Part shown: positions 2,717-36,085 of the stretch, one piece after another
How the letters are laid out: each line of letters starts with the position of its first letter
How positions within the stretch are numbered: position 1 is the stretch's first letter
DNA from: an uncultured Staphylococcaceae bacterium
GTDB lineage: Bacteria > Bacillota_I > Bacilli_A > RFN20 > CAG-826
DNA: 37,729 nt
NCBI GenBank assembly: GCA_964392865.1
Contig: CAYMRJ010000004.1
Coordinates: 1-37,729 of the forward strand
Reading direction: 5' to 3'
Program-made: the position numbers and the translations under genes
The notes under the pieces: model-generated
What the model saw: the letters and a program-made list of their open reading frames with translations, nothing else
Databases searched by the model: none
What the model was told of the DNA's origin: nothing

Positions 2717-4033
2717 TTAGAGGGTCGGATCGACACTGTAAAGACGGGCGATGTAGTAGCTGCTGGAGGTTAGATTGCTCGTGTTGTAGGTGCCAAACGT
2801 GGTGTAGGTTCCGTTGCTGCCGATGAAAAGGTCGTTGGAACCGTTGTTGCCGACGATGGCATAGGCAGAAGATTCGATGGTCCAGGTGAAGGCTTCCTCT
2901 TGGGCAACCAAGTAGGTGCTGCCGGAAGTAAGGGCCAGATAGAATCCGTCGTTATCCCCTCCATCGAATTTGAGGGTGTATCCACCTTCGACGACATTGA
3001 CGACAACATCAACGGCCGTTTCGAAATCGGTAGTCGAAGACCAGAAATTGGTGCTCTTCGCCCCGGTGAAGTAGTAATAGCCGTCCCTTTGGGTCTGATA
3101 CATGCCGAGTTTGTAGCTGGTGCCGTCCTCGGGTTCGATGACGTATTCCAGAGTCGGGCCGTCTTCCGAAACGGTGACGGTCACGGTGTCGGCGACGGTT
3201 TCGCCTTCGGCGGCGCCGTTGGCGGTAGCGGTCAGGGTCGTGGTCCCGACCTTGACGCCGGTAAGGACGCCATCTTCGACGGTGGCAACGGTCTCATCGC
3301 CGACGGTCCAGGTCACGGTGGCATCGGTAACGTAAGCCGGAGTGACGGTAGCGCTCAAAGTGACGGTACCGTCGACGGCCACTTCGATGTCGCCGTTACT
3401 GATGGTGACATCGGTAGCATAGTAGGTCTCGGCGCTCGGATCGGTCTCGTAGAGATAGGCAGCGTAGGTCGTGGCCGAAGTGGCGTAGCTGGAATAAGAA
3501 GAAGCGCTGAAGGTGTCGAAACTATTGTAGTTGCAGATGAAAAGGATGGTTCCGTTATAGGATTCCTTGCAGATATAGCCGTAGGTCTCGTCGATGTACC
3601 AAAGGGCGCTTTCTTCGTCCTCGGTCACGCCGATGTAGTTGGCGCTATCCTGAAGGGTGATGAACTGCCCGTTGATGGAGCTGTCCTCATCGACGATCTG
3701 CATCGAGAAGCCGTCGTCGTATTCGGTAACGAGGAGGTCGGCGGCTTCGCTGAAATCCTGGGTAACGGCCAGATAGTTGCCGCTGGTTTCGCCGGCGAAG
3801 AAATCCCAGTTGCCGTTCCCGGCTTGGAAGTTCCCGAGCTTGTAATAGGTGACTTCGTCATCGCCTCCGCCATCGGTGGAGTCGGTGTCTTCGGTCGAAT
3901 CCGTGCTGTCGACGGTCTCGGTCGTTTCGCTTTCGTCCGTGGCGTCTGTGCTGTCCTCGCCCGTATCGCCGCAGCCGGCCAAAACCAAAGTGCCGATCGC
4001 GAGCAGGGAGGCAAGCAAAGCTTTGTTCTTCAC
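2717..4033 (-). CDS. Surface lipoprotein, family A (module - Big_2 - module)
   Basis: It has a GTG start and the signal peptide KNKALLASLLAIGTLVLAG|CG, followed by an acidic S/T/D/E linker. Module copy 1 runs YYKLGNFQ...LYETDPSAE. The Big_2 segment is VTLSATVTPAYVTDATVTWTVGDETVATVEDGVLTGVKVGTTTLTATA. Module copy 2 runs SYKLGMYQ...RLYSVDPTL. Confidence 0.85.
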   Translation of the reverse strand: MKNKALLASLLAIGTLVLAGCGDTGEDSTDATDESETTETVDSTDSTEDTDSTDGGGDDEVTYYKLGNFQAGNGNWDFFAGETSGNYLAVTQDFSEAADLLVTEYDDGFSMQIVDEDSSINGQFITLQDSANYIGVTEDEESALWYIDETYGYICKESYNGTILFICNYNSFDTFSASSYSSYATSATTYAAYLYETDPSAETYYATDVTISNGDIEVAVDGTVTLSATVTPAYVTDATVTWTVGDETVATVEDGVLTGVKVGTTTLTATANGAAEGETVADTVTVTVSEDGPTLEYVIEPEDGTSYKLGMYQTQRDGYYYFTGAKSTNFWSSTTDFETAVDVVVNVVEGGYTLKFDGGDNDGFYLALTSGSTYLVAQEEAFTWTIESSAYAIVGNNGSNDLFIGSNGTYTTFGTYNTSNLTSSSYYIARLYSVDPTL

Positions 4034-4196: not shown

Positions 4197-5426
4197 TCAG
4201 ACGGTGGGATCGGCCGCGTAGAGGTGGGCCGGGATGCTGGTAGCAGCATAAGTGAAGACGGAAACCCTGAGATCAGTATTGCTGCTGTAGGTGCCGATAT
4301 AGACTTGTTCGCTGGCGGAATTATAGGAATAGATCGCGTAGTTGTCCTCGGCATCGGCCATATACCAAACCGTGGCTTCGGTCTCCGAGAGGGCAGGATT
4401 GCGGTAGCTGCCGGCAGTGGTGGTGATGTAGGAATCGCCGACCTTCATGGTGAAGCCGCCGCCATCGACGAGGGCGATGGTGACGTCGGCAGCCTCGCTA
4501 TAGACCGTGGTCGTATCGAAATAGTAGCCGTTGCTGGTCATTTCCCCGTTGAAGAAATACCAATCGGGAGCGCTGAGGTTCGACTGGTAATAGCCGAACT
4601 TGTAGGTCCCTTCGGCAATCTCGGCATTGGTAACATAGTTATCTTCGACTTCTTCCTCTTCCACGACGATTTCTTCGATATAGGTCCGAGCCTTGAAGAT
4701 TTCGGGGTAGGCCATGGTGCCCCTGTAGCAAGAGAAGCGCGATTGGTTGGTGTTGGTGTTGTAGTTGATGCAGTAGTCGGAATAGCCGGAAGGAACGATG
4801 CTCACGGTGTAGTCTTCGCGCATCTCGATGGTCCATTCAAAGGCACTATCTTGGGTATTCAGGTTGTTGCCGCTGCCAGGGTAATAGAGGTAGCCATCGG
4901 AAACGGCGAGATAGAAAGTCCCTTCGGTTTCGCCTGCCTCGAGGGTGATAATGGCAGTAGAACCATCATAGATATACTCAGTCGTCTCGCTGGTCAGCCC
5001 TTCGACCTCGACGGACGCGCGGTAGGTGCCGTTCTGTTCGCCGATAGCCATGCCGTAGGTACGCGCAGTGATGAGAATCTGATCCCCGGCGGAAAGTTCG
5101 CTCGTATCGGTCACCAAAGTAACGGTGCCGTCTTCGTATTCGACGTCGCCGGTGTCGTCATCGTCGGTGTCGTCATCGTCGTTGTCGCCGGTGTCGTCAT
5201 CGTCGTTGTCGCCGGTGGAATCGGTCGAATCAATGGGATCGGTGGACTCGGTCGATTCGGTGGATTCCGTGCTGTCGGTGGATTCCGTGCTGTCGGTGGA
5301 TTCGACGGTTTCGGAGGTTTCGCTTTCTTCGGCGACCTCGGAGGTTTCGCTGGCTTCTTCGCCGCAGCCGGCCAGCACAAGTGTGCCGATCGCGAGCAAG
5401 GAAGCGAGCAAGGCTTTCTTCTTCAC
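4197..5426 (-). CDS. Surface lipoprotein, family A (long acidic repeat linker, diverged module, C-terminal module)
   Basis: The preferred start is GTG at 5426, giving VKKKALLASLLAIGTLVLAG|CG. It has an AAGGAG RBS 7-8 nt upstream, and this start and leader are homologous to the two paralogs. The track ORF start at 5504 adds an unlikely 26-aa extension. The C-terminal module runs TYKFGYYQ...WYFFNG...HLYAADPTV. Confidence 0.8.
   Translation of the reverse strand: MKKKALLASLLAIGTLVLAGCGEEASETSEVAEESETSETVESTDSTESTDSTESTESTESTDPIDSTDSTGDNDDDDTGDNDDDDTDDDDTGDVEYEDGTVTLVTDTSELSAGDQILITARTYGMAIGEQNGTYRASVEVEGLTSETTEYIYDGSTAIITLEAGETEGTFYLAVSDGYLYYPGSGNNLNTQDSAFEWTIEMREDYTVSIVPSGYSDYCINYNTNTNQSRFSCYRGTMAYPEIFKARTYIEEIVVEEEEVEDNYVTNAEIAEGTYKFGYYQSNLSAPDWYFFNGEMTSNGYYFDTTTVYSEAADVTIALVDGGGFTMKVGDSYITTTAGSYRNPALSETEATVWYMADAEDNYAIYSYNSASEQVYIGTYSSNTDLRVSVFTYAATSIPAHLYAADPTV
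5145..5310. repeat. In-frame tandem repeats encoding the acidic linker of the lipoprotein
   Basis: The unit ggtgtcgtcatcgtc(gttgtcgcc) is reiterated across 5145-5215, encoding GDNDDDDT-type repeats. The 18-bp unit ggtggattccgtgctgtc occurs at 5259-5276 and 5277-5294 plus a partial copy, encoding STESTD repeats. Confidence 0.8.
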
Positions 5427-5492
5427 TATTTCTTTCTCCTTTATAAGGACTGGCCAGTGAATGCCAGCCGGCATGAGTTTCTTATAGAAAGA

Positions 5493-5504
5493 CCCCCCCG
5501 TCAA
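5493..5504 (-). promoter_or_regulatory. TTGACG -35-like box fused to a G7 tract upstream of lipoprotein 4197-5426
   Basis: The minus strand reads TTGACG(5504-5499) followed by Gs, 7 G in total (C7 on + at 5493-5499). I could not find a properly spaced -10. TATAAG lies only 12 nt downstream. Confidence 0.3.
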
Positions 5505-5646
5505 TGCCCGAAAGGCTCTTTAATGCGTGAATGAAAAGAAAGCAACCATCGGGATTTTTTCACGCCGTGAGGCATCTTTGGAAACGATTTCGAATTGATC
5601 CCGTGCAAACCAAAGCGAAGCATTCCTTTCCAAAATTGAACTCAGA

Positions 5647-5672
5647 TAAAAAGGCCGGCTCCCTGCCGGCCT
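5647..5672 (-). terminator. Rho-independent terminator after gene 5701-6204
   Basis: The minus strand reads aggccggc-aggga-gccggcc followed by ttttt. Confidence 0.8.
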
Positions 5673-5700
5673 CCATTGCTATCTAATTCCGGATTTAAGC

Positions 5701-6204
5701 CTAAGGATTCTTCCTGCCTTTGAAGCACCAGACAAGCAGGGAGACCACTCCCACGACCCAAAAAAGAATCCCAAGCATGAAAGCGACTATCGAGAATATC
5801 TCTCCTCCGTTATATGACGAAGTGCCCCAGGCCAGACAGAAGAAACCCCCGCAAAGGATGAAATCGCAAAAGAAGAATATATTCTTCTTTTCGGCCGGGC
5901 TCATCTTGCGGACCGGGCGGCGCTTGGAAGGAATGTTGACCTTGGCGATTTCGGCGGTCTTGGCATCCTTTTCGGCCTTGGCCGCTTCGACGTCCCCGGC
6001 CCTTGCGTATTTCGAACACCAGCCACCGCACTTGACGAAGCCGTTCCCCTTTTCGGAGCGCTCGTTGGTGCAGAACCCTTCGGCATCGACCTTGAAATAA
6101 GGCATTCCCAAAAGGTTGCTTTCTTTCTTCCTTGCCCCGGCGTAATGGGCGCAGCTCCAGCACTTCTTCTCCCCGAGGCCGCTTTTTCTCTCGGTATCGC
6201 TCAT
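5701..6204 (-). CDS. Cys-rich (zinc-ribbon-like) protein with two C-terminal TM helices
   Basis: The N-terminal part is CWSC...C...C(GGW)C, followed by a Lys/Ala-rich linker. Two hydrophobic helices follow: NIFFFCDFILCGGFFCLAW and IFSIVAFMLGILFWVVGVVSLLVW. Its ATG overlaps the upstream TGA as ATGA at 6201-6204. Confidence 0.65.
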   Translation of the reverse strand: MSDTERKSGLGEKKCWSCAHYAGARKKESNLLGMPYFKVDAEGFCTNERSEKGNGFVKCGGWCSKYARAGDVEAAKAEKDAKTAEIAKVNIPSKRRPVRKMSPAEKKNIFFFCDFILCGGFFCLAWGTSSYNGGEIFSIVAFMLGILFWVVGVVSLLVWCFKGRKNP

Positions 6205-7094
6205 AGATCCTCTTCCCTCAAGGGAATGCTTATTTCGGGCTGGACGAGGCGCCAGATCCTGGCCCTGAGATTGTCGTCATAGCCATCGGAGACGAAGACG
6301 CCGGCAAAGCGCTTATGCCAGTAGCCGAAGGCATCGCGTTCCTTGACGAAGGTAATCCGCTTCTCCTTTGCCAAAGTGCTTTTTTCGGTCCATTTGATGA
6401 ACTCCTCGTCCCAACTGCGAACGCTGGGCCTTTCGTAGATGATCGAATGGCTCTTATTGAAGATGTTCTGCCAGCCCCGGCGGTCGGTCAGCGTCCCGTC
6501 CTCGCCCTCATAGCTGACGACTGGAAACCAAAGGTTCTTGTACATCCCCCTCTGATAGCCTTTGTAGTTCTTTCCATAGACGACGTTGATGATTTCCCTG
6601 TTGCTGGAAAAGCGATCGTCGATCCGGATGCTTCCTCTGGCCTTGATGGCCTCGAGCTTTTCCTCGTCGCTTTCCCATTTCAGAGGCTCCGAGCGCTTGG
6701 CGATCTTCTCCTTTATGATGGCGGCGACCCGATCCATTTCCCCGTTGATGCCCTCTAGATCCGTGCCATAGGCCTTGATCCGATAGAAAGCGACATCGGA
6801 AGCCAGCGTTTCGCCTTTGGCGGCCCGCTTGATCTCTTCTTCCCTTTTCCTATCGCTTTTGATGGCCTCTTCCCCGGCATGCTGGCCTTCGTCCACCTCG
6901 ATGGCAATCTCCAGCTGCGGGAGATAGAGATCGATGAGGCGATAGGACCCATTGTCCGAGGAAACGTACTTCTGGGTCTCGATCAAAAGGTCGGGATCGG
7001 CGATGCGGTGGTAGATCCCGTTGATGACGTAGTTCTCGTAGACCTTCTTCAAGCCGCGCCCGAGAGAATGGGCGACGTAGTCAAGTTTATCCAT
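6201..7094 (-). CDS. PvuRts1I/AbaSI-family modification-dependent (5hmC-type) restriction endonuclease-like protein
   Basis: It is 297 aa. The N-terminal part KKVYENYVINGIYHRIADPDLLIETQK....IDLYLPQLEIAIEVDEGQH resembles, from my memory, the Vsr-like nuclease half of PvuRts1I (HYIINRV.H.L.DPD...; LFPQL.L.LEIDE.HH). The C-terminal half (LWFPVV...; RFAGVF) resembles the SRA-like half. The length also matches the family. Confidence 0.65.
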   Translation of the reverse strand: MDKLDYVAHSLGRGLKKVYENYVINGIYHRIADPDLLIETQKYVSSDNGSYRLIDLYLPQLEIAIEVDEGQHAGEEAIKSDRKREEEIKRAAKGETLASDVAFYRIKAYGTDLEGINGEMDRVAAIIKEKIAKRSEPLKWESDEEKLEAIKARGSIRIDDRFSSNREIINVVYGKNYKGYQRGMYKNLWFPVVSYEGEDGTLTDRRGWQNIFNKSHSIIYERPSVRSWDEEFIKWTEKSTLAKEKRITFVKERDAFGYWHKRFAGVFVSDGYDDNLRARIWRLVQPEISIPLREEDL

Positions 7095-7120
7095 TGGGGC
7101 CCCTCTTTCTTTCGTTGAAA

Positions 7121-7147
7121 ATTCTAGGCCCCCCCCGGAGAAATCAA
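7121..7147 (-). promoter_or_regulatory. Candidate promoter of the restriction gene with a G8 tract in the spacer
   Basis: The minus strand reads TTGATT(7147-7142), then tctccGGGGGGGGcc (15 nt), then TAGAAT(7126-7121). This lies about 27 nt upstream of the ATG at 7094, and a GAAAGAGGGG RBS lies in between. The G8 tract is C8 on + at 7129-7136. Confidence 0.45.
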
Positions 7148-7234
7148 GGGCGCCATTCCGGGCGCCGAATGTCCCGAATGGCTCAAATGAGGGCTAATTT
7201 CGAAAGAACGTTTTCATCCGATTGCAGCGGGGCG

Positions 7235-7442
7235 TTTCCAACTTTTGACGCTTTTTGTTTCCAATTTTTGACGCTTTTTGTTTCCAACTTTTGACGGATT
7301 CCGTTTCCAGTTTTTGATGGATTCCGTTTCCAAGATTTGGAGTATTTCATTTCCAAGATTTGGAGTATTTTGGTTCCAAAATTTGGAGCATTTCGTTTCC
7401 AAGATTTGGAGTTTTTTGCTTCCAAGATTTGGAGTGTTTTCT
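7235..7442. repeat. Intergenic tandem array, 9 units of 22-24 bp (period 23)
   Basis: Units 1-4 (7235-7326) read tttccaayttttgayg(c/g).... Units 5-9 (7327-7442) read tttccaagatttggagt....., each with the palindrome TCCAA-gat-TTGGA. Degenerate copies continue to about 7490. Confidence 0.9.
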
Positions 7443-7510
7443 TTCGGTTCTTGGGCCTTGTGCCTTCCGGCTTCTTTGGAATCCAGTGCCAGATTGCGGG
7501 GATTCCACCG

Positions 7511-7558: not shown

Positions 7559-8221
7559 TTACGAAAGTGGATCGCCTTCTCCGTCTTCTCCAACTCCGGG
7601 AGGGTTTCCGTAGAGGCCTTCGATCTTCTTATCGTAGAAGTAGCCCTGCCCCTTTTGGGCCTGGGCTCTTTTATAGGCGATCGAATTGCGCCCCAAGACC
7701 CGGTAGAAGGAATAGTAGAGATAGATCACCGAAATGAAGAACCAAGGGACATAGATCCCGAGGAAATACCAAGGGACGATATGGACCGTGAAGTAGTTCC
7801 CGTAATCGGTGAAGGTCGTCGTGAAATTCGCGGCGATCGAAAAGGCGATGGCCATTAGCAAGATGGGAAGCAGGAACAAGGCCGGGTAATAGGGTTTCCG
7901 GAAGACCCGGTATTTCCTTTCTAGGAAAATGACCCTCATAAAGCAGATTGCCCCGATGGCGTAATAAAGAAGGATCATGCAGAAGAAAGTAATGGCGAAG
8001 GCATTGGAAAAGTTATAGCCGACGAAGGTCATGAAGCCTCCGGCCCCGAACCAAAACATGAAGCAGGCGATGGTATGGCCCGCAAGCCTACCGGGAACCT
8101 TCGGATTCTCGACGGCGATGGCTTTGAGCTTCTCCTCGTCGATGATCCTTTCTTCGAATTTCCTCTTCTCTTTCTTCCCTTCCATTTCAGGCACGTTACC
8201 AAAAAGCGAGGAACGGTTCAC
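7559..8221 (-). CDS. Multi-pass membrane protein of unknown function
   Basis: A charged N-terminus (EGKKEKRKFEER) is followed by about 4 aromatic-rich hydrophobic helices. The start is uncertain: GTG at 8221 or ATG at 8185, and neither has a clear RBS. Confidence 0.55.
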   Translation of the reverse strand: MNRSSLFGNVPEMEGKKEKRKFEERIIDEEKLKAIAVENPKVPGRLAGHTIACFMFWFGAGGFMTFVGYNFSNAFAITFFCMILLYYAIGAICFMRVIFLERKYRVFRKPYYPALFLLPILLMAIAFSIAANFTTTFTDYGNYFTVHIVPWYFLGIYVPWFFISVIYLYYSFYRVLGRNSIAYKRAQAQKGQGYFYDKKIEGLYGNPPGVGEDGEGDPLS

Positions 8222-8282: not shown

Positions 8283-10547
8283 TTAGGCGGTATAAGCACC
8301 GAAACAGACGTAGAAATAGGAGAACATGCCGGTCGAAGCATAGACCCTGACGGTGTAGGTCTTGCCGTCTACGCTCTTTTCCCAGCCATCGTCCGTCTCG
8401 CTCCAGCCATCCGCCTCGGTAAGGACGGCGGAAGCGGCGGTTTTGACCAGATCGGTCCCGAGCGAACTGCTGACATACATGCCGGAATCGTACTGGAGGG
8501 CGTATTCGTAGTAGCCCTCGGCGGAAAGAACGGTCGAACTCGAGACCTTCCAGCCGTAGGCGGTGTTGAAATAGGGGATGTAGGTATCCAATTCTTGGGT
8601 GGAAACGATGCCATCGTAGGAGCTTGTATCGAAGTCGGAGAGAAGAGTTCCCCAGCTTCCGTCAATGACATAGAAGTAAACCCGCAGGTACATGCCGCTC
8701 ACTTCAAGCCTCATGCCGTATTTGCCATCGGTGCTAAGGAAATTGCGGTAAGCGTCAGAGGCGGAAGTCCCGTTTTCGACGAAGCCGCTTTCCAAGATGG
8801 TTTCGGCATATTCGGCCGCGAAGCTGGTAGCGGTAGCGTTGCCGGGCATCACGTAGTAGCAGATGGAACTTTCGGAAGAAAGCGAGGAATAAAGGGTCCA
8901 GGTATATCCACTTGGATTGTAGAAAGGAACGACATCTTCGAAGGCGACTTGGTCGTCTTCCGCCAAGGCGCCATTGAGGTGTCCGCTCCAGGTCTCGAGG
9001 GTATCCTCATCGAGGATATCGGCCCAAGAAAGCCCAGCTTCGAGATCGTCCTCGTAGCCGTAATCGGTAATGTCGATGGTGGTCGAGTTGATGTCCTTGA
9101 AGGTGACGTTGTAGTTATAAGGCCAATCGCCGATGTTATAGAGGAAGCTGATTTTCGGATTGGCAGTGGTGCCGCTGATGGTCAAAGGATAGGCATCGAC
9201 GTCTCCGCCGCCCCAATCGTAGCTGATGTCGAAGAAGCCATCCGGATAGACGTCTTCGAGAAGCCCGTAGATCGGCAAGAGATACTTGAAGTACTCGGTC
9301 CCGAATTCTTCTTTGAGTTCATAACTGCTGCCGTTCACGTCGAAGAACTGCTGGGCGACGTCATAGTCCGGGGTCACCCCTTCCCCGACGCTTGCGAAGT
9401 AGGCATCGACGGCATTGCCTTCGATAGGTTCGCTCGTCTGGTAGAAGGCATTGCCGGTGCTGCTAAGGCCGTCGAAGGTCACATAGCTATCCCCGACTTG
9501 GAGGGTCCCGCGGTGGGTCGGGCTGCTGGTATAGGTATTCTTGGCATAGACGCCGACCCCATCGACAACCTTGATTTCCCACATGCCCTCGTAGCTGCTA
9601 TAGCTGCTATAGCCAAGATATGCCGTATAGCTCGTGGCGTTCTGGAGGGTTTCGAGGATCTCGCCGACTCCGTCTTGCCCTTCTTCGTCGGGATAGGGTT
9701 CGACGCCCCAATCGAGGCCCTCTTCCAAGGAGGAAGGTTCCACGAAATCGAGATCGATCGAAAGGATGTAGGTGTAGCCCATCATCTCGGCCCAGCCGAC
9801 CGAGAATAGGCTTACGGGAGAAAGATTCTCGTCGAAGACGACATCATAGGACTCATAGGTAACGTAGTAGTCTTCGGAAGGTTCGGTGAGAGCAAAGAGG
9901 ACAGAGAGGCCGTCGCTGACGTCTGAAGCAAAGAGCGAAAGGGTGAGGGTTTCGGCATCCCAAATGACGCTGCTCTCGTCGATATTGGCAAAGGGTTGAT
10001 AGTAGACGTCGCTATAGGCAATGGGGTCCCCGTTTTCGTCGGTCTCGTTCACGTACGTAACGGTGTTGTCCCTTCCGAGGCTCCTGGTGGCCAGATAGCC
10101 GCCGTTATTTTCGTAGACGGCGAGCGGGGCGATGGTTCCGACGGCAGTTCCATCGGATCCTTCGGAAACGCCGTGGTAGAAATACTCGTCGGTATAGATG
10201 CCGGTCATCCCGTAATAGTCAAGGGCGCCCAACTCCGGGAAATTGATCATGGCGATGCCGCTTAGGGCAACGGATCCAAGGCCCTTGAGGGCAGCGATGG
10301 CATCTTCTTCCGAAAAAGAGGTTTCGGGGTCGTCTGAGGAAGACGTCTCGCCAGGGACTTCGTCCGAGGAGGAATCGTCGGGGCTCTCGTCCGAGGAACT
10401 TTCCCCGGAAGAAACGTCATCCGATGCCGTCGATTCGGTGACGCTGCTTTCCTCGCTTCCGGTGGTTGCTGTAGTTCCCGAACAGGAACTAAGGACGAGG
10501 CCGGAAGCAAGCAGGCAGATAGCCAATGCTTTCGTTCTAGATTTCAT
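8283..10547 (-). CDS. Large surface lipoprotein, family B (754 aa)
   Basis: The signal peptide is MKSRTKALAICLLASGLVLSS|CS, followed by an acidic Ser-rich linker. The N-terminal half is paralogous to 12689-14140 (DWG(V/I).PY.DEEGQDGVGEIL..LQ.ATSY; GYLA.RS...DNTV.Y). The C-terminal half carries modules like those of 10850-12571. Confidence 0.85.
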   Translation of the reverse strand: MKSRTKALAICLLASGLVLSSCSGTTATTGSEESSVTESTASDDVSSGESSSDESPDDSSSDEVPGETSSSDDPETSFSEEDAIAALKGLGSVALSGIAMINFPELGALDYYGMTGIYTDEYFYHGVSEGSDGTAVGTIAPLAVYENNGGYLATRSLGRDNTVTYVNETDENGDPIAYSDVYYQPFANIDESSVIWDAETLTLSLFASDVSDGLSVLFALTEPSEDYYVTYESYDVVFDENLSPVSLFSVGWAEMMGYTYILSIDLDFVEPSSLEEGLDWGVEPYPDEEGQDGVGEILETLQNATSYTAYLGYSSYSSYEGMWEIKVVDGVGVYAKNTYTSSPTHRGTLQVGDSYVTFDGLSSTGNAFYQTSEPIEGNAVDAYFASVGEGVTPDYDVAQQFFDVNGSSYELKEEFGTEYFKYLLPIYGLLEDVYPDGFFDISYDWGGGDVDAYPLTISGTTANPKISFLYNIGDWPYNYNVTFKDINSTTIDITDYGYEDDLEAGLSWADILDEDTLETWSGHLNGALAEDDQVAFEDVVPFYNPSGYTWTLYSSLSSESSICYYVMPGNATATSFAAEYAETILESGFVENGTSASDAYRNFLSTDGKYGMRLEVSGMYLRVYFYVIDGSWGTLLSDFDTSSYDGIVSTQELDTYIPYFNTAYGWKVSSSTVLSAEGYYEYALQYDSGMYVSSSLGTDLVKTAASAVLTEADGWSETDDGWEKSVDGKTYTVRVYASTGMFSYFYVCFGAYTA

Positions 10548-14231: not shown

Positions 14232-15692
14232 TTATTCGGAATCGGGTCTTTGAAGTTCGTCTTCAGGGACGATCTGCCATTCGCCGCCCATCCGCGGCCC
14301 GATGCGTTTGACGTTTGGAATCCTATCGAGAATCCTTTGAAGCGTGCGTCTCGAAACACCGAGTTCCCTGGCCATTTCCATTTGGGTGATTTTTGGGTTT
14401 CCGATGACAAGTCGGAGGACCTTATTTTCGTAAACTCGAAAATCCTCGTTGTCATCGGATGTTTCAATAAAGTTTTTAGCGCCAATTTTAGCGCCATTTT
14501 TAGCGCCATTTTTAGCGCCATTTTTAGCGCCATTTTTAGCGCCAATTATGGCGACATTTTTAGCACCGTCTTCGGCATCGTCCGCTTGGTCCGCGGCCAT
14601 CGAAGCGAGGACGCCCGAATCGAAGGGGATGCGGACGATGATGTAGTTTTCGCCGAACTCGAAGATGTCCTTCTTGTAATGCCTAAGGATTTCCGGCACG
14701 CCAAAGCCGACCTGTTCGACGAAATCCAGAGCCGAAAGGATCGCCATGAGTTCGGGATTGCGGGGCGTGCTGATGCCTTGGAAGAACATTTCCTCCGTCT
14801 CCCCTTCCGGAAGGCCTCCGCGGGAGATTATTTCGACGCGGTCGGAAAAGACATAGACGGCCGGCGGGGCGATCGACCAATCGTTATGGGCGACGGCGTT
14901 GACGAAGGCTTCGCGGAGGCTGCCCATGTCCATGAGCCTCCTATCGACCCGCCTGGCCCCGACAATCGTCGACTTGATGATGTTGATGGCCTCGAGCCGG
15001 TTGATGACCCGATCCATGGCGACCAAAAGGCACTGGTTGCCGTACTCGCTTTTCTCAAGCAAGGAGGACTTGTCCTTCCCTTGGAAGCGGGCGACCTTGA
15101 CGGAAACCATGTTTTCGTCGCTTAAAAGTTCGGCCAGGAAGTTGTACTTCCCTTCCGAAGTCCTAAGGCAGAGGTTGCTTTCGAAGCTTTCGTCGGAAAG
15201 GACGCGCTTCTTGGCGGCGTAATAGATCTTCAGCAGATTGAAGGAAAGATTGGCTTGGCGGCTCGGGGTTTCGACCATGCTGAGGGTCTTGGCGTATGTT
15301 TTGACGAAGCGCCTTTCGATTTCCGCTTCGCTCATCGGGACGGTCGATGTGCCATCGCGCAAGAAGCAGCCGGTCGCGCTTCTTCCCTCTTTCTTGACGT
15401 AATAGAGCTTATGGCCCTTGCCGACCTTCACGAAAACGATGTAGCGGTCCTCTTCCATGAGCGAGCCTATCTCGCAAAGGCCTTCGGTCGAGGGAAGGAT
15501 CTGGTCGCGGACGATGTCCCTGATGGTCCGCATCGTCTTATCGAGATCGTCGACCCCGAGGACTTCCCCGCCGTTACCGACCCCGACGTAGATGGTTCCG
15601 CCTTTGGTATTAAGGAAAGCCACGACTTCCTTGGCGAAGTCCTTGGTCAAAGAACGCTTCAGTTCGACGCTTTCGGATTCCTGGAATCGCAT
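14232..15692 (-). CDS. AlbA_2 (Schlafen-type) / HATPase_c_4 / C-terminal wHTH putative DNA-binding protein
   Basis: The N-terminus ESESVELKRSL...FLNTKGGTIYVGV fits the AlbA_2 pattern. The middle NAVAHNDWS....VYVFSDRVEIISRGGLPEG......GIS.PRNPELM fits the HATPase_c_4 pattern. The C-terminus KITQMEMARELGVSRRTLQRILDR is an HTH. A GAKN repeat linker lies between the last two. Confidence 0.75.
   Translation of the reverse strand: MRFQESESVELKRSLTKDFAKEVVAFLNTKGGTIYVGVGNGGEVLGVDDLDKTMRTIRDIVRDQILPSTEGLCEIGSLMEEDRYIVFVKVGKGHKLYYVKKEGRSATGCFLRDGTSTVPMSEAEIERRFVKTYAKTLSMVETPSRQANLSFNLLKIYYAAKKRVLSDESFESNLCLRTSEGKYNFLAELLSDENMVSVKVARFQGKDKSSLLEKSEYGNQCLLVAMDRVINRLEAINIIKSTIVGARRVDRRLMDMGSLREAFVNAVAHNDWSIAPPAVYVFSDRVEIISRGGLPEGETEEMFFQGISTPRNPELMAILSALDFVEQVGFGVPEILRHYKKDIFEFGENYIIVRIPFDSGVLASMAADQADDAEDGAKNVAIIGAKNGAKNGAKNGAKNGAKIGAKNFIETSDDNEDFRVYENKVLRLVIGNPKITQMEMARELGVSRRTLQRILDRIPNVKRIGPRMGGEWQIVPEDELQRPDSE
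14473..14568. repeat. 12-bp tandem repeat (8 units) inside the AlbA_2 gene, encoding (GAKN)n
   Basis: The unit tttttagcgcca occurs 6 times nearly perfectly, plus 2 degenerate units. It translates in frame on the minus strand as GAKNVAIIGAKNGAKNGAKNGAKNGAKIGAKN. Confidence 0.9.
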
Positions 15693-15753
15693 GGTTTCGG
15701 GGACTTATCCTTTCCAACCTGATTATAAACCGAAGGGGATATGGGCAGGTTTG

Positions 15754-16953
15754 CTAAAAGAGCAGAAAATCGAGGATATTGACCACTTTGATGCCGTTAT
15801 GGTTCGTGGCGCAGTTCTTGTCTAAGGATATGATCGTCTTTTCGTAATGGTCGTTGATCGAGGCCAGAGGCGAAAGTTCTTTTTCCAAAGCCTTCTTGGT
15901 GGAAACGGTTTCCGCCACTTGGTAGTAGCGGATCTCGTCCCCGCTGAGGGCAACGAAATCGACTTGCTTATCCCCGGCCTTGCCGACATAGACGTCATAC
16001 CCGCGCCTTAGCAATTCCAAATAGACGATGTTTTCGATGGCGCTCCCGGCGCTCTTTTCGGAATAAGGGCAGACGAGGTTCCTAAGGCCGGGATCGGCTA
16101 TGTAGTACTTTTCCAAAGACTTGAGGACCTGCTTGGCCTTTATGTCGTAGCGGTCGGCCCGATAGACGAGAAAAGAATTTTCGAGGGCCGCCAAAGCCTC
16201 GGCGACCGTCGCGGGCCGCAAAGGCTTTCCGAGCTTGGCTTCCCGGGCGATGGCTTTGGCGAGGCTATTGGCCGAAACGATCTCCCCGACGCTTTTGCAT
16301 AAAGCGGAAAAGACCCTTTTCAAAAGGACGGTGTCGCGGATAGAGCCGCGGGCCAAGGCGCCGTTAAGGAGAAGGGTATCGTAGAGGCTCCCAAGGAAAA
16401 TGCCTCTGGTCTCTTCGTCCAAACTTAGATCGAGGAACTGGGGGAATCCTCCGTATTTCAGATATTCTTCGAAGAGGTCTTCCCTGCTTTTGGGGCTTAA
16501 CCTGTAATGATGGCAATAATCCCCGAATGAGAAGGGCAGCATCCTGATTTCCGCGATTCGGTCCGAAAGCAAAAGGCGGCATCCCGGCGAAAACGGATTG
16601 GCCACGGAACTCGCCACGTAGATGTCGGCATCGCATTTCCGGGAAATGGCATCGATGGCCTCCTCCCACCCCTGGACCTGCTGGATTTCGTCGAAGAATA
16701 GATAGTTCTTCTCATCGGGAACGATCCTCCTTTCGGCCAACGAATGGAGCTGTCCGGAGGAGCGGACGGCATCGTATTCCATCGATGCCAGATCGAAATA
16801 GCGGATTTGGGCATTCGGTTCCGTAAGACCCAAAATGTCTATGAACTTTCTAAAGGCGGTCGACTTTCCGCAGTTCCTCGGCCCTGTAAGGACCTTGATC
16901 ATGCCGTTGTCTTCGGCTGCTCTCAGCCGCTCCAAATATTCGCTGTACGCCAT
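15754..16953 (-). CDS. AAA-family ATPase with DUF4143-type C-terminal domain
   Basis: Walker A is LTGPRNCGKST and Walker B is YLFFDEIQ. The size (about 400 aa) and the C-terminal part (IENIVYLELLRRGYDVYVGK...VDFV) are typical of AAA_14/DUF4143 proteins. Confidence 0.8.
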   Translation of the reverse strand: MAYSEYLERLRAAEDNGMIKVLTGPRNCGKSTAFRKFIDILGLTEPNAQIRYFDLASMEYDAVRSSGQLHSLAERRIVPDEKNYLFFDEIQQVQGWEEAIDAISRKCDADIYVASSVANPFSPGCRLLLSDRIAEIRMLPFSFGDYCHHYRLSPKSREDLFEEYLKYGGFPQFLDLSLDEETRGIFLGSLYDTLLLNGALARGSIRDTVLLKRVFSALCKSVGEIVSANSLAKAIAREAKLGKPLRPATVAEALAALENSFLVYRADRYDIKAKQVLKSLEKYYIADPGLRNLVCPYSEKSAGSAIENIVYLELLRRGYDVYVGKAGDKQVDFVALSGDEIRYYQVAETVSTKKALEKELSPLASINDHYEKTIISLDKNCATNHNGIKVVNILDFLLF

Positions 16954-17540: not shown

Positions 17541-17614
17541 TGGTGCCCCGCCGCAGAGTCGAACTACGAATTGATCCTTACCATGGATCCGTTATGCCGT
17601 TTAACTAGCGGGGC
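17541..17614 (-). tRNA. tRNA-Thr (anticodon GGT), CCA encoded
   Basis: I folded it by hand. The acceptor stem is GCCCCGC/GCGGGGC and the D stem is GTTA/TAAC. The anticodon stem GATCC/GGATC carries the loop AT-GGT-AA. The T arm is CGTAG-TTCGACT-CTGCG, with discriminator A and a 3' CCA. Confidence 0.9.
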
Positions 17615-34204: not shown

Positions 34205-36085
34205 TTAAAGAATGGGGAGGGAGGTACGTTCTGAAATATATTCGCGAAGAGCCCGGTCTTCGCAATATATGTAGCATCCCTTCTGCCCGCGGCTTAGCAA
34301 GACGCGATAGGTATTGCGGATGATCCTATCGGCAAGGTCGTAGTCCTTCGTCGACTTGATGCCTTTAAGTGATTGGTCGGTCTTGGCTCTTTTGGTGTAG
34401 TCGGTCTGAACCCGCCCGTATTTGTAGACGAGATCCTTCCCAATGATGACTCCGGTATAGTCCAGTTCCAATCCTTGGCACGTATGGATGCAGCCGACTT
34501 GATCGAAGGAATTCTTATCAATGGCCCATGTGGAAGTGTTGCTGAAATTCCACTTGGCTTCGAAACCGTCCTCCAGGACGATGTCATAGAGATATCCGTT
34601 GGCATTGTCTTTGGTAATCCAGTCATAGCAGTACCCGGCTACCATCCTGGCTTTGTTGCGGCCGTTCTTCTTTCTCAGGTCTTCCCTCATCTTGGCGGGA
34701 CTCCCATATAACCTCAGATCGTAATCGAGGTCTTTGAAGTCATTGTTGGCAGTCTTTCTGATCCCCAATAGATCATCGAGGAAGGCCAAGTAGCCATCGC
34801 TTCCGTTGCAACGGAATTGGCTGGACAAAGTCAGGGATTCGGGTTCGTCGATCAAAACGCTTTTCTCAAGCCTTGCCTGTTCCTTGATCATCTCCACCGA
34901 TCCGAAGTCACTTGTCGTGACGATCTGATCTTCATCGATTAGGAATACAGAAACCTTCGAGGCGTGGATGATTTCCCGGGCTTGGTTTTCGCCCTTGTTC
35001 TTGAATAGTCCGCTTTTCTCGTTAAGCCGATGCGCTTCGTCGCAGATTAGCACGTCGAATGTGTTTTTAGGACGGTCGACGAAAGAGCCGCTCGGCATGA
35101 AAAGGCGGCTGACATAGCCTTTCTTGTAATCGTCTTGGATCAATAGCTTTGCGTAGACGCTTCTAGGGGCTGCGTTCTTGGTGACGTAAGCGGCGCTGTA
35201 GCCTTGGTTCAGCAAGGTGGCCAAGAGTTGAACCGCGATGACGCTTTTGCCGGTTCCTGGCCCGCCCCGGACGATGATGGTGTATTTCTTATCCGGATCT
35301 CTTCCGCTCAAGGAATCGCTAACCTTCCCGAGGATGGTTTCATAGGCCACCTTCTGCTCATCGATCATGTAGAACTCCTGATTCCCTTTGAGCATCGAGG
35401 CAATCGAATCCTGCAGAGCCTTGCTGGGCTTTAGCTTCCCGTAGTCGATGAGCATCAAGACGTCTTCGTCGTTTTGCTTCACGACGAACCGTTCGATGAA
35501 CTTCCTCAGTTTGACCGTATCTTCAGCCAGGAAGGCTGGCGCCAAATCGGTTATCTCGCGGTAAAAGTCATTGTCGATATGGCGACGGTTCCTCTCCCGG
35601 TAGTTATGGAGATAAGCGCAAGGTTTAAGCGATATGGCCCTATTCCCCACGTCCTCGTTGAAATTCTCCAGAAGCTTCGCGTAGGTATAGGCCTGATAGG
35701 AGGGATGGCAGACGAGGCGGTTGGCTCCGCCGGTATAGGCCATAACGAGATCCGGCTTATCGGTCTCTTGGCTATCTTCCCATTGTTTGAGTTCGATGAT
35801 TACGACGTGGCTCTTCCCTCTTTCGTCTTTGCCGGCCAGCATGAAGTCGACGCGCTTGCTAGTCAAAGGGATCTGGTATTCGATGGCGACTTCGCAGCCG
35901 TCGTCGATCTCGGGGACGTCGATGACGTTCCGCATGAACTGCAGCGAATTGGCCCAGGCCCGGTGCTCGCCGGGATTGTTGTGGGCCAAATGGTGCTTCT
36001 GGAACTCGTTTTCCAAAATAGAGGCGATGGCATTGTCCCTGACATCGTCGACGAAACGTTTCTTCGTACCGCTATAGATGATCAT
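34205..36085 (-). CDS. DUF2075 (Schlafen group-3-like) ATPase/helicase with N-terminal PD-(D/E)xK-like nuclease motif
   Basis: The N-terminus is typical of DUF2075: IIYSGTKKRF.DDV....IA..L......AWANSL. The segment KRVDFML...VVIIELKQW fits the D...ExK pattern. Walker A is GGPGTGKS and the DEAH-like box is LICDEAHRL. Confidence 0.8.
   Translation of the reverse strand: MIIYSGTKKRFVDDVRDNAIASILENEFQKHHLAHNNPGEHRAWANSLQFMRNVIDVPEIDDGCEVAIEYQIPLTSKRVDFMLAGKDERGKSHVVIIELKQWEDSQETDKPDLVMAYTGGANRLVCHPSYQAYTYAKLLENFNEDVGNRAISLKPCAYLHNYRERNRRHIDNDFYREITDLAPAFLAEDTVKLRKFIERFVVKQNDEDVLMLIDYGKLKPSKALQDSIASMLKGNQEFYMIDEQKVAYETILGKVSDSLSGRDPDKKYTIIVRGGPGTGKSVIAVQLLATLLNQGYSAAYVTKNAAPRSVYAKLLIQDDYKKGYVSRLFMPSGSFVDRPKNTFDVLICDEAHRLNEKSGLFKNKGENQAREIIHASKVSVFLIDEDQIVTTSDFGSVEMIKEQARLEKSVLIDEPESLTLSSQFRCNGSDGYLAFLDDLLGIRKTANNDFKDLDYDLRLYGSPAKMREDLRKKNGRNKARMVAGYCYDWITKDNANGYLYDIVLEDGFEAKWNFSNTSTWAIDKNSFDQVGCIHTCQGLELDYTGVIIGKDLVYKYGRVQTDYTKRAKTDQSLKGIKSTKDYDLADRIIRNTYRVLLSRGQKGCYIYCEDRALREYISERTSLPIL

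Follow-up and report, generated by a model that had tools for sequence, protein, structure and literature searches.

The PvuRts1I/AbaSI family of restriction endonucleases (REases) cuts DNA that contains 5-hydroxymethylcytosine (5hmC) or glucosyl-5hmC (ghmC), and its characterised members, including the prototype of plasmid Rts1, are stand-alone proteins, whereas in the clade studied here the REase gene is overlapped by a gene for a membrane protein. What does a membrane protein do beside such a nuclease? We address this question at a locus of an uncultured Staphylococcaceae bacterium (assembly GCA_964392865.1, contig CAYMRJ010000004.1, positions 1 to 37,729; this 37,729-nucleotide stretch is called the window), in which a 297-aa REase and a 167-aa cysteine-rich protein with two predicted transmembrane (TM) helices are encoded in tandem. 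The sequence-only reading of this stretch had seen in the pair a possible two-component variant of a type IV restriction system, with the small protein as an abortive-infection effector. Comparison with related loci supports the first proposal and, as set out below, does not support the second. It shows that the family of the small protein behaves as a generic, exchangeable and dispensable accessory; the stand-alone defence nucleases that it accompanies represent at least four unrelated folds.

A PvuRts1I-type nuclease and its overlapping neighbour

Homology searches confirmed the first gene as a PvuRts1I/AbaSI-family type IV REase with its catalytic residues intact; such modification-dependent enzymes also go by the name type IIM, and NCBI lists them as 'AbaSI family restriction endonuclease'. 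Its N-terminal Vsr-like, atypical PD-(D/E)XK nuclease domain matches Pfam PF21598 (PvuRts1I-like_N; E-value 7.7e-22; score 78 bits, cutoff 27; residues 4-89) and its C-terminal SRA-like domain, of the type that binds modified bases, matches PF18491 (E-value 1.4e-14; score 54.7 bits, cutoff 30.2; residues 150-287), while the PADLOC profile mREase_II covers the protein end to end (5.7e-44, 1-288 of 294 profile positions). The best matches among PDB sequences are AbaSI (7.9e-17) and PvuRts1I (4.4e-12), with the N-terminal regions aligning at 3e-11 and 1e-11, respectively, and an identity to these solved enzymes of about 23-29%. The two-domain architecture is the same, and the length compares with 293 aa for PvuRts1I and 321 aa for AbaSI. 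The landmarks ENYVINGIYHRIADPDLL, IDLYLPQLEIAIEVDEGQH, LWFP and RFAGVF, by which the family had been recognised from the letters alone, are all found in the protein, so that the earlier assignment was borne out.

Residues K17, E20, D55, E66, D68, E69 and H72 are invariant in an alignment of 18 homologues (A1). HMMER alignments read together with the structure papers place K17, E20, D55, E66, D68 and E69 on PvuRts1I K17, E20, D57, E68, D70 and E71; mutagenesis of PvuRts1I found K17, E20, D57 and E68/E71 to be needed (PMC4027163), and the counterparts in AbaSI, likewise defined by mutation, are K23, E26, D61, E72, D74 and E75 (PMC4081097). In the C-terminal half, the candidate pocket residues W189-F-P191, W208, N210 and E221 show little or no variation in A1, and the WFP and W-x-N motifs align with WFP and W-I-N of AbaSI. 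The C-terminal alignment to PvuRts1I is weak, and residue-by-residue equivalence with the PvuRts1I flipped-base pocket (W205, P207, W215, N217 and E228) is probable. In all likelihood, the REase is active and requires modified cytosine for cleavage.

The REase stop codon (TGA, 6203-6201) shares bases with the start codon of the small gene (ATG, 6204-6202) in the tetranucleotide ATGA, as the sequence-only reading had pointed out. Both start codons are preceded by a purine-rich, Shine-Dalgarno-like stretch, AAAGAGGGG before 7094 and GGGAAGAGGA before 6204, and the second of these together with the overlap favours translational coupling. Past the small gene, the hairpin predicted by RNA folding has a stability of -26.4 kcal/mol (z = -3.47), which none of 200 shuffled sequences reached, and a 96%-identical relative (L001) retains it with compensating context; with its U-tract, this terminator-like element would close a bicistronic unit. 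At the other end, a second terminator-like hairpin (7166-7149) lies just upstream of a promoter-like element, TTGATT-15 nt-TAGAAT, which stands directly upstream of the REase start. Its 15-nt spacer falls short of the 16-18 nt that defined a promoter in our scan, and we assign this promoter tentatively. Because terminator-like hairpins bound the pair on both sides and a promoter-like element precedes the REase, the two genes look like an autonomous, self-contained bicistronic unit.

The small open reading frame behaves as a real gene. Between the window and L001 it differs at 16 nucleotides, distributed 2/2/12 over the three codon positions, and this third-position bias argues for a coding sequence, as does the retention of its N-terminal domain in about 28 protein clusters at 50% identity.

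A survey of gene neighbourhoods, which the sequence-only reading had proposed as a way to refute its idea, revealed that the small gene is conserved beside REase homologues. The relevant clade, REases of 45-53% identity, consists of metagenome-assembled genomes (MAGs) labelled Bacillales, Bacilli or Firmicutes together with metagenome contigs. The partner is present in six of its nine informative lineages (window/L001, L002/3/8, L004-6, L007, L046 and L048), overlapping the REase gene by 14 nt in L002/3/8 and by 4 nt in the others, and is absent from L009, L010 and L045; L047, cut by a contig end, was not counted. The downstream orthologues in L002, L004, L007, L046 and L048 (332-471 aa) can be aligned with the window protein over their first ~75 residues. 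In a neighbour-joining tree of the REases, which carries no support values, the lineages without a partner branch within the coupled group, and the next outgroups all lack it too, which indicates that the partner was acquired once in this clade and later lost. We found no partner beside REases of at most 35% identity from other phyla, beside PvuRts1I on plasmid Rts1 or beside a Paenibacillus plasmid copy, in agreement with the expectation that the prototypes act alone.

A different partner occurs elsewhere in the family. In MAGs labelled Methylotenera, Cyclobacteriaceae and Desulfobaccales (L021:4001-6386, L022:3854-5046 and L023:4001-6170), a PvuRts1I-like gene of ~30% identity is joined by an 8-nt overlap to a gene for a 493-aa DUF2779/Cas4-like PD-(D/E)XK protein. 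This pairing adds a second, independent type of coupling within the PvuRts1I family.

Coordinates of the REase/membrane-protein unit in the window
Feature	Position	Strand	Remarks
REase gene	6201..7094	minus	297 aa, ATG at 7094
Small membrane-protein gene	5701..6204	minus	167 aa, ATG at 6204
ATGA overlap of REase stop and partner start	6201..6204	minus	purine-rich GGGAAGAGGA just 5'
N-terminal Cys4 domain, conserved family core	5998..6204 (aa 1-69)	minus	alignments A2, A4
Two predicted TM helices (about aa 107-127 and 134-160)	5725..5886	minus	hydropathy scan; AlphaFold2 helix 134-164
Intrinsic-terminator-like hairpin GGCCGGC-AGGGA-GCCGGCC, then U-tract	5645..5675 (approx.)	minus	~30 nt past the small-gene stop
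5' boundary of the unit	7095..7166	minus	hairpin, promoter-like element, Shine-Dalgarno-like AAAGAGGGG, then REase ATG

A Cys4 membrane-protein family beside unrelated nucleases

The 167-aa protein follows the order that had been noted before, a cysteine-rich head, a Lys/Ala-rich linker, two TM segments and then a terminator, each of which we could recover from motifs, hydropathy or RNA folding. The head contains C15-W-S-C18, C45 and C59-x3-C63 and is followed by the linker at about residues 70-105. Residues C15, W16, S17, C18, C45 and C63 are invariant across the family, and R25 and Y66 nearly so. This Cys4 domain is basic (net charge +6) and presumably binds zinc. Hydrophobic segments begin near residues 107 and 132 in a hydropathy scan, with six K/R among the 15 residues before the first segment and three after the second. 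By the positive-inside rule, the segments would form a hairpin with a short outer loop and both termini in the cytoplasm, and the K/R-rich flank before the first would place the Cys4 domain there too. An AlphaFold2 model is well defined over residues 1-90 (pLDDT 87-96), showing a beta-rich module followed by a helix at 70-89. Foldseek found no structural neighbour of this model in PDB or BFVD, a profile of the Cys domain found no relative among PDB sequences, and the whole protein had no match in Pfam, PADLOC, NCBIfam or PHROGs.

The protein first appeared to be an orphan, as word-indexed searches returned one near-identical protein for the 167-aa query and six matches for the Cys-domain profile. 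This status was overturned by inspection of gene neighbourhoods and by an exhaustive HMMER scan of 1.84 billion representatives, which yielded about 28 genuine clusters (50% identity) that have residues 8-90 in common. We left out P0046 and P0067 as low-complexity repeat artefacts, and P0068, considered as a true fusion, looks like a read-through gene call. The window protein fits the resulting profile at positions 3-80 of 82 (1.3e-26). In 27 family members the Cys domain had no Pfam or NCBIfam match; apart from a weak DUF2207_C match in four of these proteins and BspA-type leucine-rich repeats in one, Pfam, NCBIfam, PADLOC and PHROGs were negative for them. These comparisons show that the small gene belongs to an uncharacterised, previously undescribed family, which we propose to call the Cys4-linker-TM nuclease-accessory family; it defines a new protein family and a new domain without known fold or annotation.

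Members share a common plan in which the basic Cys4 domain is followed by a charged helical linker and then by one to four TM helices, beyond which the C-terminus varies widely. The linker spans 36-144 residues, is strongly charged and often contains ERxRLExERWxxSLSxEE, and the C-terminus may be missing or consist of a short cytoplasmic tail, a predicted outer domain of ~190-210 aa or, in one case, the BspA-type repeats. The window protein is the shortest complete two-TM form, and 143-aa members are merely tail-anchored by the hydropathy scan. Region by region, conservation falls steeply from the Cys domain to the linker and further to the TM and C-terminal part, whose identity is 9-35% in comparisons that give 34-73% for the Cys domain; in the partners of L004 and L007, for example, the values are 73% for the Cys domain, 42% for the linker and 15% for the remainder. 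TM and C-terminal modules have been exchanged between close relatives and across Cys-domain subgroups.

The predicted extracytoplasmic domain of ~190-210 aa is common to many single-TM members (P0048, P0049, P0053, P0061 and P0066, and the partners at L007, L032, L035, L038 and L049). It is marked by motifs such as YGNWD ... GW..C ... LNQ and is found in both Cys-domain subgroups. An AlphaFold2 model of one long member, P0053, has a mean pLDDT of 58, too poor for the outer domain to be classified.

Genomes were scanned with two Cys-domain subgroup alignments (A3 and A5). The domain was present at 48 loci, many of them redundant, which represent ~26 distinct lineages. In 45 of them the gene has a same-strand adjacent nuclease from one of four unrelated classes, PvuRts1I-like, PD-T4-3/CMoRE, UzuA or PDDEXK_4/PDC-S26, at gaps of -14 to +24 nt. 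The other three comprise two loci truncated by contig ends and L065, where a 211-aa neighbour with an HNH-like HLEHTIPIHE motif is a nuclease candidate. Loci retrieved with the second subgroup contained no PvuRts1I-like gene, and there the Cys/TM gene lies 0-24 nt from the nuclease gene. The neighbours were identified as a PD-T4-3 homologue (PADLOC, about 1e-60), UzuA homologues (2e-55 and 1e-38) and PDDEXK_4/PDC-S26-like proteins (Pfam 4e-8 to 2e-5; PADLOC 4e-10 to 2e-3, with no PADLOC match for L059). The PDDEXK_4 gene is upstream of the Cys/TM gene in some loci and downstream in others.

The Cys domains coupled to REases form a separate clade, at most 39-40% identical to other Cys domains; in the other clade, domains that are 80-87% identical adjoin three different nuclease folds. 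The exchange is clearest between L053 (PD-T4-3) and L049 (PDDEXK_4), whose DNA is ~82% identical in two flanks, the Cys gene and the 3' end of an upstream WYL-regulator gene, and which have unrelated nuclease open reading frames between these constant flanks; on this alignment, the pair is a clean nuclease-cassette swap. L065 holds a third cassette within the same frame of WYL gene and Cys/TM gene. A 141-bp segment shared by L053 and L049, considered as a conserved promoter, proved to be the 3' end of the WYL gene.

At these loci (L065:815-3115, L049:1534-4595 and L053:209-1371) the genes form a three-gene module of a WYL/WCX regulator, a swappable nuclease and the Cys/TM gene. The regulator stop overlaps the nuclease start, and the cassettes are PDDEXK_4, PD-T4-3 or, less surely, HNH-like.

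Such exchange between constant flanks would also be expected if the Cys/TM gene had an unrelated cellular function and coincidentally marked an integration hotspot for defence nucleases. We consider this extremely unlikely: the two genes move together from one genomic context to another, members of the REase clade have overlapping start and stop codons, adjacency is kept when the gene order inverts, and among the 48 loci the partner was never seen without a nuclease where the flanks could be read. The Cys/TM gene also decays while the nuclease stays, unlike a housekeeping gene. In a lineage of Clostridium sp. CAG:568 (L033, L051-L058 and L072), an internal deletion has removed the linker and TM part, leaving a 70-136-aa partner beside an intact PD-T4-3 gene, and in L066-L069 a Cys-domain stub of 32-49 aa precedes an intact PDDEXK_4 gene. 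Because decayed partners adjoin intact nucleases, the nuclease does not seem to need its partner, which, judged from these loci, is dispensable to it.

The same loci bear on whether the partner is an antitoxin-like device that keeps a self-toxic nuclease off the chromosome, with no role in sensing phage. The SNIPE nuclease turns toxic once its TM domain is removed (PMC13190303), and translational coupling would secure synthesis of the partner whenever the nuclease is made. Intact nucleases nevertheless persist beside decayed partners, most REase family members in other phyla and three lineages of the same clade have no partner at all, the nuclease gene comes first in most modules, and type IV enzymes spare unmodified host DNA (PMC12923530; PMC4027163). 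We regard sequestration as very unlikely.

PvuRts1I-type enzymes, PD-T4-3/CMoRE, Uzume (UzuA) and PDC-S26 have all been listed and investigated as defences of a single gene, mostly in E. coli, whereas in Firmicutes MAGs and gut metagenome contigs each of these four kinds can come with a similar membrane-anchored Cys4 protein against which nuclease genes are swapped as cassettes. The last three are unrelated to the window nuclease in sequence and fold. The papers that our searches found on them, including PMC12923530 and bioRxiv 10.1101/2025.02.28.640651, make no mention of a membrane partner, and catalogues of defence systems overlook an accessory component at these loci. PD-T4-3 (renamed CMoRE) is by experiment a 5hmC/ghmC-dependent type IV nuclease (PMC12923530; bioRxiv 10.1101/2025.02.28.640651), the substrate class of PvuRts1I, and so at least two of the partner nucleases target one class of hypermodified phage DNA. 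Heterologous 5hmC-specific enzymes used as epigenomic tools may also be affected, if the partner modulates activity or stability.

Proposed membrane tethering and the alternatives

Together these observations are best accommodated, at a probability that we put at about 0.45, by a partner that serves as a membrane tether or adaptor and keeps nuclease activity at the cytoplasmic face of the membrane. The Cys4 domain would hold either the nuclease or incoming DNA at this face, and DNA binding is the more plausible of the two options given the promiscuity and basic charge of the domain. A soluble modification-dependent nuclease could then act where and when phage DNA enters the cell. Cleavage would fall to the nuclease, which could work alone, with the partner raising efficiency or specificity, and in longer relatives the variable outer domains may link the tether to events at the cell surface. 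Three features favour a tether over a pore-forming effector: conservation is confined to the Cys domain, with the TM and C-terminal modules reshuffled, members have anywhere from one to four TM helices, some being merely tail-anchored, and the basic domain and K/R-rich flank before the membrane would put the N-terminus inside.

The model resembles SNIPE, a GIY-YIG nuclease that is anchored by a TM segment and cuts phage DNA while it is being injected; its anchor region, of low conservation and differing length, works as an adaptor (PMC13190303). In both cases a defence nuclease is linked to the cytoplasmic membrane through an anchor of this kind, and the likeness is functional only. SNIPE is a single polypeptide with an N-terminal TM segment, DUF4041 and a C-terminal GIY-YIG domain, whereas the anchor in the window is a separate gene with a Cys4 domain that is combined with several nuclease folds; a Pfam scan found neither DUF4041 nor GIY-YIG in either window protein, which are not of the SNIPE family. 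The pair would thus represent a split, modular counterpart of the single-chain enzyme, and the family offers a handle for asking whether membrane positioning is a general principle of nuclease-based immunity beyond SNIPE.

Several points weigh against tethering. A docking-peptide search found no terminal or internal motif shared by the four classes of nuclease, and the C-terminal tails of coupled REases resemble those of uncoupled ones. Because near-identical Cys domains serve unrelated nuclease folds, fold-specific docking of the Cys4 domain to a nuclease is unlikely, which pushes the model toward binding of DNA or another common ligand. The benefit is not obvious either, given that type IV enzymes already tell self from non-self. 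Zinc binding is read from the four invariant cysteines, and the whole evidence base is comparative.

An abortive-infection mechanism, in which the nuclease senses modified phage DNA and activates the membrane protein directly or through cleavage products, so that the latter forms oligomers that make the membrane permeable and the infected cell dies or is arrested, would account for the tight, conserved coupling. A soluble sensor and a small TM protein in one operon recur in known systems, and DNA ends, whichever nuclease makes them, could be ligands of a basic Cys4 domain, in keeping with the varied folds. In those systems too a small membrane protein accompanies a soluble defence component, but here it is the TM module that is not conserved: it is the least conserved region, swapped between close relatives, it ranges from one to four helices with some members having a single C-terminal TM segment, and many members carry large outer domains that would be superfluous for a pore-former. 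The catalytic residues of the REase are fully conserved, as would not be expected of a mere sensor, and PvuRts1I and PD-T4-3 defend or cleave alone (PMC4027163; PMC12923530; 10.1101/2025.02.28.640651). Together with the nucleases that remain intact beside decayed partners, this leaves the effector mechanism of the sequence-only reading unsupported, and we rate it as unlikely.

Another possibility is a membrane-tethered, ToxR-like transducer or regulator, with a Cys4 domain for binding operator DNA or a regulator and a TM segment and outer domain for sensing an envelope perturbation such as phage adsorption; it would switch on or license the adjacent nuclease cassette. A cytoplasmic, basic Zn-type domain, a dimerising helix, a single TM segment and a variable outer domain do resemble membrane-bound one-component regulators, and the N-terminal Zn-type domain, TM segment and variable outer domain are likewise found in zinc-binding anti-sigma (ZAS) proteins. 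Independence of the nuclease fold and dispensability would both be expected of a regulator, and an array of about ten 23-bp palindrome-containing repeats lies upstream of the window operon. That array is absent from related loci, however, and upstream non-coding motifs are common to close relatives only. Some modules already have a dedicated upstream WYL-domain regulator, minimal forms including that of the window are without an outer sensor domain, and the partner shows no similarity to ZAS/zf-HC2 or any DNA-binding family. The hallmarks of ZAS and ToxR-like proteins were also not found: we saw no zf-HC2 domain, no helix-turn-helix, no adjacent sigma-factor gene at the inspected loci and no common upstream motif. 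A regulatory role is quite unlikely on this evidence.

The tether model can be extended to a stronger form, in which the Cys4-stalk-TM protein would be a universal docking platform of bacterial innate immunity that seizes either entering phage DNA, which may be hypermodified, or the injection machinery at the membrane and passes it to whichever soluble nuclease is encoded next to it, with the outer domains reading phage adsorption. We think this form somewhat unlikely. If it were true, injection-site restriction, so far shown for single-chain SNIPE only, would be a modular plug-and-play strategy of at least four nuclease families.

Genomic surroundings of the pair

The window is chromosomal. 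A tRNA-Thr(GGT) gene at 17541-17614 borders a variable stretch of lipoprotein and defence genes (1-17.5 kb) on one side and housekeeping genes on the other, among them genes for a MiaB-like radical SAM enzyme, 4-alpha-glucanotransferase, GalK, GalT, cardiolipin synthase and an MFS transporter. The tRNA gene is a possible island integration site; no integrase was seen. A prophage or superinfection-exclusion origin of the module was rejected, since no Cys-domain gene was found in a phage genome collection or in viral contigs.

The 23-bp array (7222-7445) sits upstream of the REase gene, 140-350 nt from its start, and downstream of a membrane-protein open reading frame at 7559..8221(-). It consists of about ten strictly phased units, each with a short palindrome (TCCAAnnnTTGGA-like), and its motif occurs 5 times against 0.04 expected. 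The array could be an operator array, an iteron array or a remnant.

The variable first 17 kb encode Big_2 lipoproteins, a Schlafen/AlbA_2-HATPase_c_4 protein and an AAA_14/DUF4143 ATPase. Three large predicted lipoproteins with an LAGC lipobox flank the module (2717-4033, 4197-5504 and 8283-10547, all on the minus strand); they contain acidic Ser/Thr/Asp/Glu low-complexity tandem repeats, and one has a Big_2 domain, with no other family match.

Genes for the AAA_14/DUF4143 ATPase and the HATPase_c_4 (Schlafen/AlbA_2) protein lie near the REase module in the window (14232-16953) and at L002:530-4584, L004:1-255, L045:344-8892 and L046:830-2026, and SLFN-g3 helicase genes recur as well in the window (34205-36085), L002 and L046. 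The recurrence of these three gene types in unrelated contigs suggests that the REase modules have a common defence-island neighbourhood.

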